From: a virus
Lineage: Duplodnaviria; Heunggongvirae; Uroviricota; Caudoviricetes
Strand: one strand, 5' to 3'
DNA: 37,878 bases
Virus record (IMG/VR): IMGVR_UViG_2654587996_000002
Shown here: one piece after another, positions 10,528 through 36,382 of the stretch
Layout of the letters: each line of letters begins with the position of its first letter
Position numbering within the stretch: position 1 is the first letter of the stretch
Made by a program: the position numbers and the translations under genes
The notes under the pieces: generated by a model
The model's input: only the letters and a program-made list of their open reading frames with translations
The model's database searches: none
Told to the model about the DNA's origin: nothing

Positions 10528-10816
10528 AGATTATGTCGTGCCGATCCTGTCGGCAACGGCCACAGCCGGGGGGATTTTTATGGCGCTGATGCGCAAAACC
10601 TTTGTCCCCCGCGAGGCCTTTGAAAAACTCTCCGACCGGGTTGAGCGGGTGGAGAGCCGGATTTCCGGCCTGCCCACGCAGCAGGAGGTGAACAGACTCA
10701 ATATCGAAATCACCACCCTGCGCGGTGAGCTTAAGGCCACCAATGCCACCCTGAAATCCGTCTCCCACCAGAACGAACTGCTGCTGGAGCAGGCTGTAAG
10801 GAAAAAAACACAATGA
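10508..10816 (+). CDS. single-pass membrane protein in the Mu gp25 slot (possible releasin-like lysis factor)
   Basis: N-terminal TM VVPILSATATAGGIFMALM followed by coiled-coil-like soluble region; function inferred from position only. Confidence 0.45.
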   Translation: MWVSIVKDYVVPILSATATAGGIFMALMRKTFVPREAFEKLSDRVERVESRISGLPTQQEVNRLNIEITTLRGELKATNATLKSVSHQNELLLEQAVRKKTQ

Positions 10817-11103
10817 GTGATTTCATTACTGAAGATCAGCGTCTTGTCATTCTGCGGTCGCTGGCGGATTACAACGGCGAACTGGGCGAATCCGTGCTTC
10901 AGGACTGCCTGGATGATTACGGCCACCGTGTGTCCCGCGACACCGTGCATACCCATATTGCCTGGCTTGCCGAGCAGGGACTGGTGCGTAAGCGCACGCT
11001 TGTTAACGGTTATTTCATCGCTGAACTGACCGGCCGGGGTCAGGATGTGGCGGAAGGCCGCGCCACCGTTCCGGGTGTGAAGAAACCACGCGCAAGGGGG
11101 TAA
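10813..11103 (+). CDS. hypothetical protein (Mu gp26 position)
   Basis: ORF with ATGA overlap to upstream gene; immediately upstream of terminase genes. Confidence 0.5.
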   Translation: MSDFITEDQRLVILRSLADYNGELGESVLQDCLDDYGHRVSRDTVHTHIAWLAEQGLVRKRTLVNGYFIAELTGRGQDVAEGRATVPGVKKPRARG

Positions 11104-17027: not shown

Positions 17028-18152
17028 ATGAAGACGAAAAACACGCCCAAACTTGCTTATGCCATTCTGAATGCCATCAGCCTGTCCGCAGACGGGGACG
17101 GTGACTGGTGTCAGATCATGCCAGCCGGTCGGGTAAAGGCCCGTGACGGTCGCCCGGAAAAACCGGCTGAAGGCTGGCTGATTAACCGTGCGACCGTTGA
17201 GCGCATGGTATCCCGGGTTGTGGCGCTCAATCAGCCGGTAAAAATTGACTACAACCACCAGAGCCTGATTAAGGGGCATCCGGCACCGGCTGCCGGTTTT
17301 GTCATGGCCTCACCGGAAAACTTCCGCTTCAGTGAAGAGCGGGGTTTTGAAGTGCGTCCGAAGTGGAACCCTCCGGCCATTGAACACCTGCGCAATAACG
17401 AGTTTCCCTGGTTTTCCCCGGTGATTGGTTATGACGAAATCACCGGTGAACCTGTTGAGCTTCGGATGCTGGCTATTACCGGTGACCCCGGTCTGACTGG
17501 CATGAATCCTGTCGCCGCACTGTCGGCGGATGACCTTTATAACGCCTTAAACCCTCCTTTAAAGGACACCTCCATGAATGAGCAATTACGCCAGTTGCTG
17601 ACGGCGCTCGGTCTGACCGTGGCTGACGGTGACGAATTTACGCCGGAACTGGGCACGGCGGCGCTGTCTGCCCTTACCGGGATCAAAACCCGTGCGGATG
17701 CGCACGACACCCTGAAAACGCAGGTTGCCAGCCTGTCAGCAGAGCTGGAAACCGCAAAAGGCACACCAACTGGCGGCACTATTGATCTGACGAAATACGT
17801 GCCCGTTGAGACGTATAACGCCCTGCGTACCGAATATGTCGCGCTGTCGGCACAGCACGGCAGCACCACGCTGGAGCAGTTGCTGGATAAGGCCGAGTCC
17901 GAAGGACGCATTTTCAAAAGCGAACGCGGATACATGGAAGGACTCGGACAACAGATTGGCGTTGCAGCACTTTCTGCACAGCTTGACGCCCGCCAGCCGG
18001 TTGCGGCTCTGACCACTCTTCAGACCGACACCGTGACCGTGCCGGATAAAAAGACCGCCACTGCTGTGCTGTCGGCTGAAGATATCGCCGCCGCCCATCT
18101 GCTGGGTAAAACCGAAGCCGAGTTCCTGAAAATGAAAGAGGAAATGCAATAA
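17028..18152 (+). CDS. Mu I-like head protease / scaffold protein
   Basis: 374 aa; helical Ala/Leu-rich C-terminal half typical of scaffold; stop overlaps start of major head gene; preceded by 177-nt intergenic region. Confidence 0.75.
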   Translation: MKTKNTPKLAYAILNAISLSADGDGDWCQIMPAGRVKARDGRPEKPAEGWLINRATVERMVSRVVALNQPVKIDYNHQSLIKGHPAPAAGFVMASPENFRFSEERGFEVRPKWNPPAIEHLRNNEFPWFSPVIGYDEITGEPVELRMLAITGDPGLTGMNPVAALSADDLYNALNPPLKDTSMNEQLRQLLTALGLTVADGDEFTPELGTAALSALTGIKTRADAHDTLKTQVASLSAELETAKGTPTGGTIDLTKYVPVETYNALRTEYVALSAQHGSTTLEQLLDKAESEGRIFKSERGYMEGLGQQIGVAALSAQLDARQPVAALTTLQTDTVTVPDKKTATAVLSAEDIAAAHLLGKTEAEFLKMKEEMQ

Positions 18153-19099
18153 TGCCTACCCCGATTACACCGGCGATGATCACCGCCCTGATGACGGGCT
18201 ACCGTTCTGATTTTCAGGCCGGGATGTCCATGGCTCCGTCGCAGTACCAGAAAATTGCGATGACCGTACCGTCCACGTCGAAATCCAACACCTACGGCTG
18301 GCTGGGGCAGTTCCCGCAGTTCCGTGAGTGGATTGGCTCCCGCGTCATCGAGAAGATGAAAGCCTATGGCTACGCCATCGTGAACAAAACCTTTGAAGGC
18401 ACCGTTGCCATTAGCCGCGATGACTTTGAAGACGACAATCTTGGCATCTACTCTCCGTTGTTCCAGGAGATGGGGCGCGCTGCGGCGGCACAACCGGATG
18501 AACTGGTCTTTGCTGCACTGCGTGACGGGATCAGTGCGGCCTGCTATGACGGCCAGAACTTCTTTGATACCGAACACCCGGTTTACCCCAAAGTGGATGG
18601 CTCCGGTGATGCGCAGATGGTCAGCAATATGTTTGTGGCAAAAACCGGCTCTGTCGGTGCACAGGCGGATTACAGTGGCCCGGCCTGGTATCTGCTCGAC
18701 TGTTCCCGCGCGGTAAAACCGCTGATTTATCAGGATCGCCGCAAGGCCGAACTGGTTGCCCAGACAAAAGTCGATGAAGGCCGTGCGTTTACTGATAACG
18801 AGTTTGTGTTCGGTGCTTCCGCCCGTCGCAATGTGGGCTACGGCTTCTGGCAGATGGCCTACATGATGCAGTCACCGCTGACGCTGGATGCGCTGTGGCA
18901 CGGCTGGTCAGCCATGCGTGACTTTAAGGCTGACGGTGGCCGCAAACTCGGCATCAAACCCACCCATATTGTTGTCCCCACCTCGCTGGAAAAACAGGCG
19001 GTGCAGCTGCTGGAGCGCGAGCTGTTCGCGGACGGTAACACCACCGTCTCTAACGAGATGAAGGGCAAGCTGGAGCTGGTTGTCGCGGATTATCTGTAA
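18152..19099 (+). CDS. major head subunit T (Mu gp34-like)
   Basis: 315 aa (Mu T about 305 aa); follows protease/scaffold; conserved Mu order. Confidence 0.8.
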   Translation: MPTPITPAMITALMTGYRSDFQAGMSMAPSQYQKIAMTVPSTSKSNTYGWLGQFPQFREWIGSRVIEKMKAYGYAIVNKTFEGTVAISRDDFEDDNLGIYSPLFQEMGRAAAAQPDELVFAALRDGISAACYDGQNFFDTEHPVYPKVDGSGDAQMVSNMFVAKTGSVGAQADYSGPAWYLLDCSRAVKPLIYQDRRKAELVAQTKVDEGRAFTDNEFVFGASARRNVGYGFWQMAYMMQSPLTLDALWHGWSAMRDFKADGGRKLGIKPTHIVVPTSLEKQAVQLLERELFADGNTTVSNEMKGKLELVVADYL

Positions 19100-30465: not shown

Positions 30466-31355
30466 TGTTTCATGTTGATAATAATTCCGGCGTGGCGAAT
30501 ATGCCTGCGCTGGCACCGGCGCAGAGTAATACCACCACCTGGTTTACCGAAGGTGACGGACAAAAAGGTATCAGCTGGATTGGTCAGGACTGGCTGAATA
30601 TTCTCCAGGCCGAACTGCTGAATATTCTGGCTGAAGCCAGTATTCAGCCGGATAAGGCGCAGTTAAACCAGCTTACGCTGTCCATTAAAGCCATTATCGC
30701 TGCGAATGCTTTTTCCCGGAAAAATAACCTGAAAGAAATTGCTGATGCCGGTGCGGAGGCTCAGCGTCTGGCCCGTGGTTATCTTGGTCTGGGGACGCTT
30801 GCCACAAAAAACAGTCTTGGTCCCGGTGACGTTAATGCCCTGGCGAAGGATCAGAATCTGGCCGACCTGGAGAATACGGGAACCGCCCGTAATAATCTGG
30901 ATGTTTACAGCAAAAGCGAGGGTGATAACCGTTACCTGCGCAGGGAGCAGAACGGCGCAGACATTCCGGATAAAGGGGCTTTTATCGATAACGTCGGTTT
31001 ACGGGAAACGGTAAACAGAGCCGCGAACGCACTGCCATCGAACGGAACGGCCGTTGCCGCGAACAGGCTGGCAAATGCCCACACAATTAATGGGGTTCCT
31101 TTTGACGGAACGCAGGATATAAACATCACTTCTGGTATGACTCTGCTGGATGGTGATGCCCGTTATGTGCAGAATGTGAGACTGGGTTCAGAAATGTCTG
31201 TATTAATGCCATTCGGGGGAAAAGTCGGTATAGGAGGATGTGTAATAACGGCGTTATCTATAGCGGGTGAAGTGGATAACAGTGGCGATTTTGCTTATTT
31301 TCGCCCACTACAGATATACATAAATGGCTCATGGATTACGGTATCTCAGTTATAA
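30465..31355 (+). CDS. tail fibre protein S (constant part plus currently expressed variable part Sv)
   Basis: GAGGAG RBS before ATG 30465; C-terminal ~115 codons lie inside the invertible segment and are paralogous to the oppositely oriented 31963-32328 ORF. Confidence 0.75.
30982..31007 (+). promoter_or_regulatory. gix-like recombination site (left boundary of invertible segment)
   Basis: TTATCGATAACG-TC-GGTTTACGGGAA; inner half-site identical to that of the right site in inverted orientation; resembles Mu gix / Salmonella hix sites. Confidence 0.7.
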
Positions 31356-31406
31356 ATAGGCGGTAAATAATATATTTTAAAACAGATTTATTTCCAGGAG
31401 GATTTT

Positions 31407-31928
31407 ATGGAACTAAAAAATATAACCCGTTATTATCCTGAAAATATGCCATATGGTAATAATGTTCAGTATTTTCAGAGTGAAGATGGTAAGGATTTCT
31501 ACGAGTCCCTGCCATTATTCACCAAAAAATATAAACTTTGCATAACACCTGACAGCGGCGTTATCTGCTCAATATCACAGGACGCCTCGGCGCTGTATCC
31601 TGTGGGTTTTTCCGTGGTTGAGAGCGACGAACTCCCTGAAGGCACTGATATTTCAGGTAACTGGAAGTTTGATGATGGTGTCATCTCACCGCTTCCGGTT
31701 GACTACGACAAAAAAGCGAAAACAATGCATCAGTCATATCTTAATCAGGCATATGAAAAGATTAATGACTGGAGAACTGAGTTACAGCTGGGCACGATTA
31801 GTGATGAAAACAGAGCTGCGCTTACACGATGGATGGAATACATCAGTCAGGTGAAAAAAATGGAACTACCTGCGATTAAAAACAAAGCTGAATTTGACGA
31901 CATTAAATGGCCGGAAAAGCCTGAATAA
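31407..31928 (+). CDS. tail fibre assembly protein U
   Basis: 173 aa; AGGAGG RBS; directly downstream of tail fibre gene. Confidence 0.7.
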   Translation: MELKNITRYYPENMPYGNNVQYFQSEDGKDFYESLPLFTKKYKLCITPDSGVICSISQDASALYPVGFSVVESDELPEGTDISGNWKFDDGVISPLPVDYDKKAKTMHQSYLNQAYEKINDWRTELQLGTISDENRAALTRWMEYISQVKKMELPAIKNKAEFDDIKWPEKPE

Positions 31929-31932
31929 CGTA

Positions 31933-31953
31933 AAGGGTGCTTATCGCACCCTT
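31933..31953. terminator. bidirectional hairpin between convergent U and S'v
   Basis: AAGGGTGC-TTATC-GCACCCTT perfect 8-bp stem followed by TTTTCCTTT; sits between U stop (31928) and S'v stop (31963). Confidence 0.6.
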
Positions 31954-31962
31954 TTCCTTTAA

Positions 31963-32328
31963 TCAGACGGATGAAACTGTGCGCCAGCCATTACCGATAT
32001 ATATCTGCACCGGACGGTAATAAACGCCTCCGATATTATCGGCTGAACTTTTCCCGGTATCCTGCACGTTAATACCTGAAAGCATACAACCGGAAGGTGC
32101 GCCATAACTCCAGGACATTTCATTACCTCCGGGTGAATGGTAACTCTGGGCACCAAGCTGAACGTTGCTAACGTATTTGTTATCAGCAGTAGCTTCGGTC
32201 ATACCGGAGTTAATGTATATATCCTGCGTCCCGTCAAAGGGAACCCCATTAATATTTCTTGGGGTGGCGAGTTTATTCGAGGCAACGGCGGTGCCGTCCA
32301 ATGGCAGAGCATTCGCCGCCTTATTCAC
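31963..32328 (-). CDS. alternative tail fibre C-terminal segment S'v (silent in this orientation)
   Basis: Minus-strand ORF with no ATG of its own; frame continues through the right gix site. Protein is paralogous to Sv (AANALP..GTAVA.N.LA....[13 protein letters not shown]-terminal RP.QIYI..W.TVS). Confidence 0.7.
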   Translation of the reverse strand: MNKAANALPLDGTAVASNKLATPRNINGVPFDGTQDIYINSGMTEATADNKYVSNVQLGAQSYHSPGGNEMSWSYGAPSGCMLSGINVQDTGKSSADNIGGVYYRPVQIYIGNGWRTVSSV

Positions 32329-32331
32329 CGT

Positions 32332-32357
32332 TTCCCGTAAACCGAGGTTTTCAGGAA
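32332..32357 (-). promoter_or_regulatory. gix-like recombination site (right boundary of invertible segment)
   Basis: TTCCCGTAAACC-GA-GGTTTTCAGGAA, a near-palindromic 26-bp site close to the Mu gix / hix pattern. Confidence 0.75.
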
Positions 32358-32422
32358 AGCCCCTGTTCTCCCCGTTTTATTCATCATGCGACAATTCCGG
32401 CTTTTTATAATAAGGAGATCGT

Positions 32423-32995
32423 ATGCTGATTGGGTATATCAGGGTGTCAACAAATGACCAGAATACGGCGCTACAGAGAAATGCGCTGGAATGTGCAGGA
32501 TGTGAGCTGTTTTTCGAAGACAGAATAAGCGGTAAGACAAGGGAACGTCCCGGCCTTAAACGCGCATTAAAGCGACTCCGGCCAGGGGATACCCTGCTGG
32601 TCTGGAAACTGGATCGTCTTGGACGTAGTATGCAGCACCTTGTCCTTTTAACAGAAGAACTCCGGCAGCGCGGCGTTAACTTCCGCAGCATTACGGACAA
32701 TATTGATACATCCACTCCCATGGGACGTTTCTTTTTCCATATAATGGGCGCACTGGCGGAAATGGAGCGGGAACTCATTATTGAACGTACACGCGCGGGT
32801 CTTGCTGCTGCCCGTGCTCAGGGGCGTCATGGCGGCAGACCTCAGAAACTGACAGGGAAAGAGCGGGAGCAAATCGCCCGTTTGCTGGCTAATGGCGAGT
32901 CCCGTAAACAAATCGCACTGATATTTGATATTGGCCTGTCCACCCTTTATCGTTATTTTCCTGCCTCACCGGCTCCGTCACCAAAAGTACCGTGA
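32423..32995 (+). CDS. gin: Gin-family serine DNA invertase
   Basis: MLIGYIRVSTNDQNTALQRNAL...GDTLLVWKLDRLGRSM...MGRFFFHIMGALAEMERELIIERT closely matches recalled Mu Gin / Hin; AGGAG RBS. Confidence 0.92.
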   Translation: MLIGYIRVSTNDQNTALQRNALECAGCELFFEDRISGKTRERPGLKRALKRLRPGDTLLVWKLDRLGRSMQHLVLLTEELRQRGVNFRSITDNIDTSTPMGRFFFHIMGALAEMERELIIERTRAGLAAARAQGRHGGRPQKLTGKEREQIARLLANGESRKQIALIFDIGLSTLYRYFPASPAPSPKVP

Positions 32996-33080: not shown

Positions 33081-35129
33081 ATGTCAGACTCCCAGTGGAA
33101 AATGCTCTCCGCCATGCCCGGAGAGTTTTCAGTCAAGGTTGCCGGTGGCACGGTGGCATTTATTGAAAGTCCTTTCAGGCCTTCGGGTAATAAAGGGGGG
33201 ATCACCTTCGCAGACTGCGTGATCCGCTTCAGCACGAAAGAGCCATTATGGGTAATGCCGGTATCCGGCAATCCCAGCGCAGAAATCACCAGTTCAGGTG
33301 TGACCGGCATTATTCCGATCACATCTGACGTGGCCGGAACACTCACGCCTTCTGACTGGAATGCACCGGATAACGCCGGACCGTCTGGCGGTACAAATGG
33401 CAGCAGTACAGAGCCGGAGTATTACTATGTGCTTCCACTGGCCGGGCAGTCCAACGGGATGGCCTACGGTGAAGGGCTTCCGCTACCGGCTTCATTCGAC
33501 CGCCCTGAACCGCGCATTAAGCAACTGGCACGTCGCAGCACGGTAACGCCCGATGGTACGTCGTGCACATATAACGATATCATTCCCGCAGACCACTGCC
33601 TGCATGATGTGCAGGACATGAGCGGGATAAACCACCCGAAAGCTGACCTGAGTAAAGGGCAGTATGGTTGTGTCGGCCAGGGGCTGCATATTGCCAAAAA
33701 ACTGCTGCCTTATATTCCGCAGAATGCCGGGATACTTCTGGTTCCCTGCTGTCGTGGTGCTTCGGCATTCACCACCGGTGATGACGGCTCATTCAGTGAG
33801 GCCAGCGGTGCTTCCGCTGATTCTTCACGCTGGGGAGCCGGTAAACCCCTGTATCATGACCTGGTAAGCCGTACCAGAGCGGCGCTGGCGAAGAACCCGA
33901 AAAACAAACTTCTGGCAGTGGTCTGGATGCAGGGAGAAGCAGACCTTGCATCGGGAAGTCAGCAGCATAATGGTTTATTCACAGCCATGGTTCAGCAGTT
34001 CAGAACCGACCTGTCTCCACTTGCAGCGCAGTGCGTGAGTGGAAATGCTGCCACGGTGCCGTGGATTTGTGGTGACACCACGTATTACTGGAAAAACACG
34101 TATGCCACGCAGTATGAAACAGTCTATGGAGCATATAAAAATCTGACCGCACAGAATATTTTCTTTGTGCCGTTCCTGACGGATGAGAATGGACAGAACA
34201 CGCCAACGAATGCTCCGGTGGAAGACCCGGATATTGTGGCTGTCGGGTATTACGGTGCGGCATCCCGTACCCAGGGCAGTTTTGTCTCCACACAGCGTGA
34301 CAGCCATTTCAGCTCATGGGCACGCAGGGGCATCATTTCTGACCGTCTGGCCTCAGCCATTCTGCTCCATGCGGGACGCACGGCTGAAGTTATGGGCGGA
34401 CAGGCCGTGCCGCCGGATGAAAAACCATCCCCTGACACGCCATCAACGCCGTCAACGGACGGGAAATCAATGACGACGCTGTTTTCTTACCGCGCATCGG
34501 AGTCAGGCGGAGCACTGACGCCACAGGGCTGGGGGGCGGAAGGCGGTAGTGCTGCTGTTGTGGATGATGTCGGTGCCAGCGGGGGCAAGGCGCTGAAGCT
34601 GACAAAACAGACCGGAAAGTCATGGTTTATGCAGCATGATGCCGGTAATGGTGCCGACCTGCTGGAAAAAGGTGGCCTTGTCAGCTGTCGTTTTAAACTT
34701 GATGGCGCGCTTACGGCTAATCAGTACGCACTGGCGCTGTACTGGCCGGTTTCTTCGCTTCCTCAGGGCGTCACACTGGAAGGTAATGCCGGTCATAACC
34801 TGCTGGCATCGTTTTACGTTCAGAGCGATGCCACAGACCTTATCGTGATGTACCACAAGGGTAATCCAGACCAGAACACGAAGCTGGGTTCATTCGGTGC
34901 ATTTAATAACGAGTGGCATACGCTGGCATTCCGTTTTGCCGGTAATAACAGCATTCAGGTGACGCCGGTGATTGATGGTAAGAACGGGGAACCGTTCATG
35001 CTGTCTCAGTCACCTGTCGGTTCTTTTGCGGCAGACAAGTTACGCCTGACCGATATCACCAGTAATGCAACGTATCCGGTACTGATTGACAGCATTTTGG
35101 TGGAAGTGAATAACCCGTCAGCAGGATAA
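33081..35129 (+). CDS. large accessory protein: SASA-like carbohydrate O-acetylesterase core plus C-terminal lectin/LamG-like domain
   Basis: 682 aa; LPLAGQSNGMAYGEG (GQSN motif) and VVWMQGEADLASG (QGE motif) as in sialate O-acetylesterase-like esterases; Gly/Ser/Thr/Pro linkers; C-terminal ~200 aa resembles concanavalin/LamG-type carbohydrate-binding folds. Confidence 0.6.
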   Translation: MSDSQWKMLSAMPGEFSVKVAGGTVAFIESPFRPSGNKGGITFADCVIRFSTKEPLWVMPVSGNPSAEITSSGVTGIIPITSDVAGTLTPSDWNAPDNAGPSGGTNGSSTEPEYYYVLPLAGQSNGMAYGEGLPLPASFDRPEPRIKQLARRSTVTPDGTSCTYNDIIPADHCLHDVQDMSGINHPKADLSKGQYGCVGQGLHIAKKLLPYIPQNAGILLVPCCRGASAFTTGDDGSFSEASGASADSSRWGAGKPLYHDLVSRTRAALAKNPKNKLLAVVWMQGEADLASGSQQHNGLFTAMVQQFRTDLSPLAAQCVSGNAATVPWICGDTTYYWKNTYATQYETVYGAYKNLTAQNIFFVPFLTDENGQNTPTNAPVEDPDIVAVGYYGAASRTQGSFVSTQRDSHFSSWARRGIISDRLASAILLHAGRTAEVMGGQAVPPDEKPSPDTPSTPSTDGKSMTTLFSYRASESGGALTPQGWGAEGGSAAVVDDVGASGGKALKLTKQTGKSWFMQHDAGNGADLLEKGGLVSCRFKLDGALTANQYALALYWPVSSLPQGVTLEGNAGHNLLASFYVQSDATDLIVMYHKGNPDQNTKLGSFGAFNNEWHTLAFRFAGNNSIQVTPVIDGKNGEPFMLSQSPVGSFAADKLRLTDITSNATYPVLIDSILVEVNNPSAG

Positions 35130-35263
35130 AAAAATGCCGCCGGGAAAGGGAAAACAAGGAAACCGGCGGCAAAGGTCGATACATCCAAAGCAAAAATGCA
35201 GGACGCCTTTTTAACCAACAGGTATTAACTATGTCAACACCATGCCAATAATGGAGATGAATA

Positions 35264-35446
35264 ATGACATTTTTACAGCTGATATTACTGTATTTCTGCA
35301 CGGCGGTATGTGTCTTATACCTGGTGAGTGGTGGCTATAAGGCCATCAGAAATTATGTTCGCCGCAAAATTGATGACGCAGCAGCCGAAAAGCTCAGTAA
35401 AACAGCGCAGGCAACTCCGCTCCCAAAAGACCCGACCCAGCCCTGA
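35264..35446 (+). CDS. small membrane protein (60 aa, one TM)
   Basis: N-terminal hydrophobic LILLYFCTAVCVLYLVSGG then charged tail; AT-rich accessory region. Confidence 0.4.
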   Translation: MTFLQLILLYFCTAVCVLYLVSGGYKAIRNYVRRKIDDAAAEKLSKTAQATPLPKDPTQP

Positions 35447-35481
35447 TTGCAGGGCTTTATTCCCGCATGAGGAGGATATAC

Positions 35482-35736
35482 ATGCCAGAAATTAAAGGCA
35501 CCGTCACTGAAGACCTGGTAAAACAGGCACTGTATTCCGGTGAAGTAAATAAGTTGCTGAAAGCGCAAGTCCGCAAGGATTTTGAGGCACAAATCGACAC
35601 TTACGTTGATGAGGTGCTGGCAAAACTTATTGGACCAGCTGCTGCGGCCAGTGATGCTGATAATGAGCCGAAAACCGAAGCACAGCCAGAACAACCAGAC
35701 CCGGCTCAGCCCGGAACTGACAGCACCATGATGTAA
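35482..35736 (+). CDS. hypothetical small acidic protein
   Basis: GGAGG 6 nt upstream of ATG 35482; followed by terminator-like hairpin. Confidence 0.45.
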   Translation: MPEIKGTVTEDLVKQALYSGEVNKLLKAQVRKDFEAQIDTYVDEVLAKLIGPAAAASDADNEPKTEAQPEQPDPAQPGTDSTMM

Positions 35737-35742
35737 CAATAC

Positions 35743-35775
35743 AAACCGGCAGTTTCTCCTGTCGGTTTTATTTTC
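35743..35775 (+). terminator. Rho-independent terminator
   Basis: AAACCGGCAG-TTTCTC-CTGTCGGTTT hairpin followed by TATTTTC. Confidence 0.65.
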
Positions 35776-35811
35776 ATGGGCGCTTTATATACCAATCAGA
35801 GGACGATAATC

Positions 35812-36012
35812 ATGGACAAGAATACAAAGCAACCTGATACCAAAGGCCTGGAAATATTAAGCACAGAAATTATCAATGCGCTACGTTCAGGACTTGATGA
35901 AGATACATTACAGGATCGAAACTTCACCACCGCAATGTGGATAGCTATGCAGATCCTGTGTACCCCAAGATGCGCTATTTTTGCGGTTCGTGAAGGTCAA
36001 CTGACTCGCTGA
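35812..36012 (+). CDS. hypothetical small protein (66 aa)
   Basis: AGAGGA about 9 nt upstream of ATG 35812; track ORF begins at 35776. Confidence 0.4.
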   Translation: MDKNTKQPDTKGLEILSTEIINALRSGLDEDTLQDRNFTTAMWIAMQILCTPRCAIFAVREGQLTR

Positions 36013-36196: not shown

Positions 36197-36382
36197 ATGT
36201 ATCGAAACATACGGTGCCGACACTGCAATAAGCTACTGGCACGGGCCAGTTTCAGCTATCTGGAAGTAAAATGTCCGCGCTGCAAAACCCTCAATCAAAT
36301 CACATCTCAGAGCGCCACAGAGCACCCCACATACACAAGGAAATCCTGCCGTGGGGAACAAGAAACATTACTTTCAGTCTGA
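36197..36382 (+). CDS. com: Com-like zinc-finger translational activator
   Basis: MYRNIRCRHCNKLLARASFSYLEVKCPRCKTLNQ has the CxxC...CxxC arrangement and N-terminal similarity to Mu Com (recalled MKSIRCKNCNKLL...RCPRCK); AGGAGG RBS; 3' end overlaps start of the downstream modification gene as com does with mom. Confidence 0.8.
   Translation: MYRNIRCRHCNKLLARASFSYLEVKCPRCKTLNQITSQSATEHPTYTRKSCRGEQETLLSV

Follow-up and report, generated by a model that had tools for sequence, protein, structure and literature searches.

The esterase NanS of Escherichia coli has an export signal and belongs to the nan regulon. Related sialate O-acetylesterases, the NanS-p proteins, are encoded by lambdoid prophages and probably enable pathogenic E. 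coli to use the O-acetylated sialic acids of gut mucus as food. In the published assays, the NanS-p alleles tested from EDL933 and O104:H4 are all reported to de-O-acetylate 5-N-acetyl-9-O-acetylneuraminic acid (Neu5,9Ac2) and the mono-, di-, and tri-O-acetylated sialic acids of mucin, and to allow growth on Neu5,9Ac2 (PMC8065619, PMC8319020). According to a 2026 preprint, the NanS-p homologue of phage phi24B, gp84, is a structural protein that decorates the capsid. A hexamer of its DUF1737 domain, a fold of one helix and three strands, plugs the central hexon of each face of the T=9 capsid, and after docking the protein is cut at its interdomain linkers, including the one between the esterase and C-terminal domains (10.64898/2026.04.10.717836). 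Here we describe a gene for a NanS-p-type protein of 682 amino acids (aa) in a stretch of viral DNA of 37,878 nucleotides (IMG/VR virus record IMGVR_UViG_2654587996_000002; Caudoviricetes), the whole of which is called the window below. The coordinates of its features are collected in Table 1.

The window protein resembles the lambdoid NanS-p proteins in having SASA and DUF6645 domains, in lacking a signal peptide, in being prophage-borne, and in the DUF1378 and DUF826 genes that lie downstream. The differences are in the N-terminus, the carrier, and the site. Lambdoid NanS-p proteins have an N-terminal DUF1737, whereas the window protein has a beta-module of about 80 aa (the N-module), and the linker that follows is longer. 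Instead of a lambdoid phage, a transposable Mu-like myovirus carries the gene, which is located between gin and com instead of between Q/stx and holin, with no holin or lysozyme gene following it. We found no pairing of a Mu-like phage with nanS-p in the literature searched.

The open reading frame (ORF) is single and unbroken, begins with ATG, and is intact, exactly as the first-pass annotation, a reading of the letters alone, had described it. That annotation had placed it in an accessory position between gin and com of a Mu-like phage, and both flanking genes were found by Pfam. It had also assigned the protein to the SASA-like carbohydrate O-acetylesterases by GQSN and QGE signatures, and this assignment was borne out. 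The Pfam SASA profile (PF03629; cut-off 24.8 bits) matched aa 192–314 at 44.7 bits, and the structure of E. coli NanS (3PT5) matched aa 109–428 with an E value of 3e-117 and 58.2% identity over 316 aligned residues. The protein also matched phrog_143, which is annotated as "unknown function," at 7.5e-298. Both signatures are present, where 0.014 occurrences of GQSN and 0.095 of QGE would be expected by chance from the composition of the protein itself. All four motif blocks tabulated for 3PT5 (GQSNA, RGGSAF, MQGEFD, and R-x-SHFS; PMC10792757) are kept. The window protein and NanS thus share GQSN, RGxSAF, MQGE, and RxSHFS, as well as a Ser-His arrangement without the DxxH aspartate; the 337-residue NanS chain differs in that it matches aa 109–428 only and is without the N-module and the lectin-like domain.

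The catalytic residues Ser, His, and Asp had been named in the first-pass annotation as the ones to expect in such a fold. Motif alignment to 3PT5 supplied predicted positions for the first two, Ser124 and His409, and not for the third: the residue three positions before the His (His-3) is an Arg and not an Asp, as in NanS. In NanS, a main-chain carbonyl serves as the acid (PMC10792757), and the Arg at this position therefore points to a Ser-His arrangement with a main-chain carbonyl as the acid and without the DxxH aspartate. What defines the unusual (inverted) oxyanion hole of the SASA family is the combination of the (H)QGE block and a Gln next to the catalytic Ser (PMC9487903). The window protein shares the Gln beside the Ser of block I and the (H)QGE of block III with the SASA family (PF03629, CE6 in CAZy, SGNH superfamily). 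Most members of that family are single-domain proteins, whereas the window protein is phage-borne and has two flanking accessory domains.

A tblastn search revealed homologues in 347 phage records, nearly all of them Shiga toxin (Stx)-converting or other lambdoid phages, and the alignments begin at about aa 94–112. Identity to prophage NanS-p proteins is 54–94% over the esterase and lectin domains (aa ~100–682), and it is ~65.5% to the 933W-type NanS-p allele, whose activity is published. A protein identical to the one in the window (P0006) is already present in NCBI from E. coli, as "hypothetical protein" or "DUF6645 domain-containing protein." All domains are under purifying selection, with ratios of nonsynonymous to synonymous substitution (dN/dS) of 0.05–0.22. 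Judged by these sequence relationships, the 682-aa protein is a prophage-type sialate O-acetylesterase of the NanS-p family and not a new enzyme.

The C-terminal domain had been compared in the first-pass annotation with LamG/concanavalin-type carbohydrate binders. Its lectin-like nature is upheld by the C-terminal domain structure of phi24B NanS-p (6YP6), which matched aa 464–678 with an E value of 3.5e-93 and 68% identity, and by Pfam DUF6645 (PF20350; 219 bits, 1.4e-65). The family named was not recovered: no sequence match to the LamG/ConA type was detected at E ≤ 0.1, and Pfam gave only DUF6645 and SASA.

The search for DUF1737 (PF08410) in the 682-aa protein gave no match at E ≤ 0.1. Twenty-two clusters of proteins of 678–691 aa share the N-terminus of the window type, all of them without PF08410, while the lambdoid NanS-p proteins (640–655 aa) begin with PF08410. 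A BLASTP comparison of the window N-terminus with the lambdoid one detected no similarity (E = 14), and in the alignment the two kinds of N-terminus converge at the start of the esterase, "EPEYYYV…GQSN". The N-module is a predicted all-beta domain of ~80 aa, unrelated to DUF1737. The part lacking in the window protein is thus exactly the one that anchors gp84 on the phi24B capsid.

Relatives of the N-module are few. An exhaustive HMMER search with aa 1–110 against 1.84 billion representative proteins gave five matches: two fragments of the same protein, one true remote relative, and two that were judged spurious, a repeat protein of 959 aa and a low-complexity protein of 150 aa. The remote relative is a Salmonella enterica fragment with 30% identity that runs directly into "EYYFV..AGQSN". 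The N-terminal 109 aa and a three-sequence profile of the N-module, used as queries in word-indexed protein searches, returned only fragments at contig ends and confirmed just the Salmonella relative; a scan of genome contigs with an N-module profile gave no confirmed locus. In the HMMER search of the 1.84 billion representatives and in the profile searches, the N-module was found only as esterase fusions and never as a stand-alone protein. Structure comparison yielded nothing confident and nothing like a known decoration, anchor, Hoc-type Ig, or tail domain; the weak neighbours were cupin/jelly-roll barrels, with PA14-type sugar-binding domains among the weak matches.

The N-module was present in three divergent lineages, in each case just 3′ of gin in a Mu-like prophage: the window, a second E. 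coli type, and Salmonella. The adjacency to gin holds for every copy whose context was examined (two E. coli types and one Salmonella). The second E. coli type (type 2) belongs to a Mu-like phage that sits within Stx phages as an insertion (LC727881/LC727895); it is ~59% identical to the window protein in the N-module and 65% over the full length, and the insert in LC727881 (L002) has the same gene order as the window: gin, esterase, DUF1378, DUF826, com, and C5 methyltransferase. The Salmonella homologue (L003; GCA_037428405.1, 8792–10461) lies in a prophage that has an invertible fibre segment as well as Mu gp45/46/48 and Baseplate_J. There, gin and the esterase are separated by two small ORFs of 58 and 87 aa, and the contig stops inside the esterase gene. 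Twelve residues of the N-module are invariant in the three lineages (W6, G14, V18, V20, G22, G23, F27, P31, P34, W57, G63, and P65), which supports Met1 as the true start. Between the window and E. coli strain AST198, dN/dS is 0.07 in the N-module (dS 0.16), 0.12 in the esterase domain, and 0.18 in the lectin domain.

The two parts of the gene differ in their history. A blastn comparison with the late region of a lambdoid phage (L004) showed a patch of 93.8% DNA identity, whose left edge is codon 112, the first of the esterase domain, and whose right edge is inside the DUF1378 gene. The order in this lambdoid region is Q … nanS-p (DUF1737, SASA, and DUF6645), DUF1378, DUF826, holin, and lysozyme. 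The type-2 allele is mosaic as well: in its lectin domain, the last ~95 aa are 98–100% identical to phi24B (6YP6), as against only ~66% in the first 80 aa, which indicates recombination with lambdoid alleles inside the domain. These alignments point to a catalytic and lectin body that is repeatedly swapped with lambdoid prophages and to an N-module that stays with the Mu backbone. Between the window and the second Mu-like phage, DNA identity is 89–95% in the structural genes, 67–70% in the block from U to the esterase, and 99% from com to the methyltransferase. The N-modules of types 1 and 2, ~59% identical against ~89–92% (DNA) in the head genes, show no sign of co-variation with the capsid. 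Co-variation of the N-module with the head genes was rejected as a test of binding: the block from gin to the esterase is exchanged as a mosaic unit of its own, which makes the comparison uninformative.

The distribution was surveyed in 5,426 complete E. coli genomes. The Mu-like structural backbone was present in 258 genomes (225 at ≥80% coverage), the type-1 N-module in 27, and the type-2 N-module in 205, O157:H7 and O111:H8 strains among them. Esterase carriers, ~232 of the 5,426 genomes, comprise O157:H7, O111:H8, and other Shiga toxin-producing E. coli as well as strains that do not produce the toxin. Roughly 90% of the E. coli Mu-like lineage has such an esterase. The published reference of this lineage is Sp18 of O157 Sakai, which is reported to be intact, spontaneously induced, and efficiently packaged (PMC2669165). 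In the literature searched, we did not find a description of the Mu-specific N-module in place of DUF1737, of its strict linkage to Mu-like backbones, or of the near-universal carriage in the lineage.

The likeliest role for the N-module would be in docking or in oligomerisation, specific to the phage. By analogy with DUF1737, one possibility, which we hold tentatively, is that it docks the esterase on the Mu-like virion, on the capsid or another exposed structure, as DUF1737 does on the phi24B capsid (10.64898/2026.04.10.717836). The particles would then carry a mucin-binding and mucin-modifying enzyme, which may later be shed by cleavage of the linker. Several observations are consistent with this. 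DUF1737 is swapped exactly at the domain boundary for an unrelated module, which in all three lineages keeps strictly to Mu-like backbones; the module is strongly constrained; the chromosomal NanS is active without an N-domain, and the module is therefore unnecessary for catalysis; and the carriage in the lineage resembles that of a core phage gene and not that of sporadic cargo. There is also a likeness to the mucus-binding decoration of T4 Hoc and phi24B gp84, with a small N-domain, a flexible linker, and glycan-binding or glycan-modifying domains in a gut phage. This likeness is one of analogy only; the window protein resembles neither Hoc-type Ig domains nor DUF1737 in sequence or, with any confidence, in structure. 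Other observations argue against docking. The N-module is unlike any known decoration or anchor domain, the gene is outside the head and tail operons, and the literature searched contained neither proteomic nor cryo-EM data on a Mu-like phage from this lineage. The divergence of the N-modules relative to the head genes is a mild argument against strict capsid binding, and so is the intact copy kept in strain AST198 by a prophage remnant without virion genes.

The N-module could instead be a leftover accessory ORF of Mu that supplies a translation start, or an additional carbohydrate-binding or oligomerisation domain unrelated to the virion, so that the gene would be plain cargo. This is a real possibility, although we put it at less than an even chance. 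The module is known only as a fusion, its weak structural neighbours include cupin/jelly-roll barrels, which often dimerise, and PA14-type sugar-binding domains, and a degraded prophage still has the cassette. If the module were just a leader for translation, one would not expect such a low dN/dS, nor core residues kept across the two E. coli types and Salmonella at 30–60% identity. This constraint speaks against an incidental module only, and not against a role in oligomerisation or glycan binding.

The first-pass annotation had suggested an auxiliary tailspike-like depolymerase. An esterase mounted on the tail or baseplate would deacetylate the surface glycan of the target bacterium at adsorption. 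The gene adjoins the tail-fibre/gin region, weak matches to PHROG families annotated as "tail protein" and "tail fiber protein" were obtained (1.5e-6 and 0.0014), and related esterase domains occur in the tails of other phages. It has been speculated in a review that NanS-p helps phages cross O-acetylated lipopolysaccharide (LPS), with de-O-acetylation of the O-antigen aiding adsorption (PMC8065619). The PHROG tail matches are, however, limited to aa 211–342, the esterase core, and gin stands between the esterase and the tail-fibre genes. No tail-adaptor, trimerisation, or beta-helix module was found by Pfam, PHROG, or structure comparison, and the homologue whose place in the virion is known sits on the capsid (10.64898/2026.04.10.717836). 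A tail depolymerase thus seems very improbable, and for any association with the virion, capsid decoration would be a more apt model than a tailspike.

A second suggestion in that annotation, that the lysogen's own LPS or capsule is de-O-acetylated, leading to superinfection exclusion or serotype conversion, fared no better, and we consider it highly unlikely. The accessory position is typical of conversion genes, SGNH/SASA esterases can act on O-acetylated polysaccharides in other systems (PMC9487903), and the K1 capsule of E. coli contains 7/9-O-acetylated polysialic acid (PMC8319020). Against this, hydropathy analysis detected no signal peptide, lipobox, or membrane segment in the 682-aa protein: the Kyte-Doolittle mean over 19 aa peaks at 0.95, and a hydrophobic core is missing from the first 40 aa. 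The envelope would therefore be out of reach in a living lysogen. The closest characterised relatives are esterases for free and mucin-bound sialic acids, and the enzyme body is 94% identical to lambdoid late genes that are co-expressed with lysis genes. No anti-phage defence model was matched, PADLOC giving 0 families for the esterase, DUF1378, DUF826, and the 78-aa ORF downstream.

For the substrate, the release route, the timing of expression, and the function of the N-module, we propose the following. The central domain would cleave the O-acetyl esters that sialic acids bear at C9 (and C7/C8). Its nucleophile would be Ser124, and Gln123, held by the network of QGE 284–286, would form the SASA-type oxyanion hole; His409 would be the base of a Ser-His dyad without the canonical DxxH aspartate, like that of E. 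coli NanS. The C-terminal lectin-like domain probably directs the enzyme to glycans. Because there is no export signal, the substrate would be reached only upon lysis by the Mu-like phage, with the enzyme free or on particles. Transcription of nanS-p is known to go up on phage induction (PMC10462455). Neu5,9Ac2, free or mucin-bound, would be converted to N-acetylneuraminic acid (Neu5Ac), which would be releasable by sialidases and catabolised by E. coli, to the gain of surviving lysogens and possibly also of phage particles in mucus. The N-module would take the place of DUF1737, perhaps in docking or in oligomerising. We are confident, on the strength of homology, that the protein is a sialate O-acetylesterase with three modules from the prophage NanS-p family, which would act on sialic acids after lysis.

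Several points weigh against this conclusion. The esterase activity published in PMC8065619 and PMC8319020 is that of lambdoid alleles, none of them Mu-borne. Block II reads RGASAF where 3PT5 has RGGSAF, although Ala and Ser are common at this position in the family, where the second residue of the block among the family matches is G in 37, A in 24, and S in 23. A full-length AlphaFold2 model, built on an alignment of 18 sequences, had a mean predicted local distance difference test (pLDDT) score of 45.5 and was too poor for a fold search; the SGNH fold is therefore inferred from the 58% identity to the crystal structure 3PT5. Scans for promoters and terminators around the gene gave no more sites than shuffled sequence. 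Finally, the cassette is intact in the AST198 prophage, which is stripped of morphogenesis and presumably lysis genes, and release by the lysis of its own phage is therefore not the whole story there.

This AST198 prophage (L001; NZ_AP043606.1, 1925–10520) is a decayed Mu-like element in which remnants of the tail fibre adjoin the transposase gene and a truncated B gene. All its head and tail genes are gone; a 684-aa esterase, DUF1378, DUF826, com, and the methyltransferase are intact.

Table 1. Features of the esterase gene and its surroundings. Positions refer to the window unless another sequence is named
Feature	Position	Strand	Evidence or remark
gpT major head protein	18152–19099
gin invertase	32423..32995	+	Pfam Resolvase and HTH_7; ends 85 bp 5′ of the esterase ORF
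Complete ORF, NanS-p-type sialate O-acetylesterase	33081..35129	+	SASA and DUF6645; phrog_143; 3PT5; 6YP6
N-terminal module, aa 1–81	33081..33323	+	Mu-lineage-specific small all-beta domain (predicted)
Linker 1, aa 82–111	33324..33413	+	Gly/Ser/Pro-rich, predicted disordered; pLDDT <50 for aa 82–110
SASA/SGNH esterase domain, aa 112–432	33414..34376	+	Homologous to E. coli NanS
Recombination patch	33414..35391	+	blastn vs lambdoid late region L004, 93.8% DNA identity
Block I GQSN, aa 122–125	33444..33455	+	Aligns to 3PT5 "17 GQSNA 21"; Ser124 predicted nucleophile, Gln123 predicted oxyanion-hole residue
Block II RGASAF, aa 225–230	33753..33770	+	3PT5 counterpart "RGGSAF"
Block III QGE, aa 284–286	33930..33938	+	Inside WMQGEAD; 3PT5 counterpart "MQGEFD"
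Block V RDSHFS, aa 406–411	34296..34313	+	3PT5 "R[1]SHFS"; His409 predicted catalytic base
Linker 2, aa 433–463	34377..34469	+	Pro/Ser/Thr-rich; pLDDT <50 for aa 433–462
Lectin-like jelly-roll domain (DUF6645), aa 464–678	34470..35114	+	6YP6 and Pfam
DUF1378 small membrane protein	35264..35446	+	60 aa; Pfam 8.5e-34; N-terminal transmembrane helix, Kyte-Doolittle 2.39
DUF826 protein	35467..35736	+	Pfam 2.7e-15; phrog_311
Terminator-like hairpin and T-run	35743..35768	+	Just 3′ of DUF826; possible end of the cassette transcript; consensus scan, not significant vs shuffles
78-aa ORF (ORF78)	35776–36012		Between DUF826 and com; no match in Pfam, PHROGs, NCBIfam, or PADLOC
com	36197..36382	+	Pfam Zn_ribbon_Com; downstream of the esterase ORF
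Type-2 esterase allele	L002 7995–10037		LC727881.1 Mu-like insert

The genes elsewhere in the window are those of a Mu-like myovirus and include Mu transposase, Portal_Mu, MuF, gpI, the gpT major head protein, the sheath, and the tape measure. No terminator was predicted between gin and the esterase ORF. The DUF1378 and DUF826 genes always accompany the esterase; they lie 3′ of it in both E. coli Mu-like types, and in lambdoids they stand directly 5′ of holin. The esterase, DUF1378, and DUF826 genes form a conserved three-gene cassette. At the position of the 78-aa ORF of the window, the LC727881 insert has a 64-aa ORF on the minus strand with two CxxC pairs (10686–10880).

A C5-cytosine DNA methyltransferase of 350 aa overlaps the end of com (36351–36382), and com and the methyltransferase together span 36197–37403. 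It matched Pfam DNA_methylase (1.2e-42), TIGR00675 dcm, and the Type II MTase model of PADLOC, and it occupies the slot of mom in phage Mu. The com-methyltransferase block is 99.3% identical to the Mu-like insert of LC727881, as against only ~69% in the adjoining esterase block.

The invertible tail-fibre segment extends over 30968–32371, with inverted repeats at 31086–31141/32198–32253 (56 nt, 88%) and 30968–31072/32267–32371. It contains one tail-fibre assembly gene (31407–31928) and, on the minus strand, an alternative C-terminus for the fibre (31963–32328); unlike the related phage in LC727881, it has no second assembly gene. Its orientation is opposite to that in LC727881, and the identity is only ~67%.

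The right end of the prophage is near 37567, the position homologous to that at which the annotated Mu-like insertion stops. In the host flank (37568–37878) lies coding sequence for an internal part of a fimbrial outer-membrane usher (positions 382–472 of the Pfam Usher profile, 2.9e-14), and the Mu-type insertion appears to have disrupted the usher gene. Positions 1–403 of the window gave no alignment to the LC727881 insert, whose left end is located ~1.35 kb upstream of the point that corresponds to window 404. The window therefore probably starts inside the prophage, without the repressor region and the left end.

The E. coli Mu-like lineage carries the NanS-p body almost as standard, with a different, conserved N-module, and counts of nanS-p alleles that are keyed to DUF1737 or to stx linkage miss the Mu-borne copies, whose NCBI annotation is "DUF6645 domain-containing protein." The Mu and lambdoid N-termini provide a natural experiment on the purpose of the N-domain, as a phage-specific anchor or as something else. 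If the N-module is not an anchor, what remains is an ordinary esterase gene, catalogued before, whose genomic setting is new. A more speculative view, which we offer as a possibility only, is that NanS-p esterases are modular, virion-displayed modifiers of mucus with an anchor fitted to the carrier, DUF1737 for the T=9 lambdoid podovirus and the beta-module for the Mu-like myovirus, and with a body that passes freely between prophages resident in the same cell through recombination at the linker. The beta-module would then be a previously unrecognised family of virion-docking domains. An N-module that anchors the enzyme to the Mu capsid would support a convergence of unrelated morphotypes of gut phages on displayed mucin-modifying enzymes.

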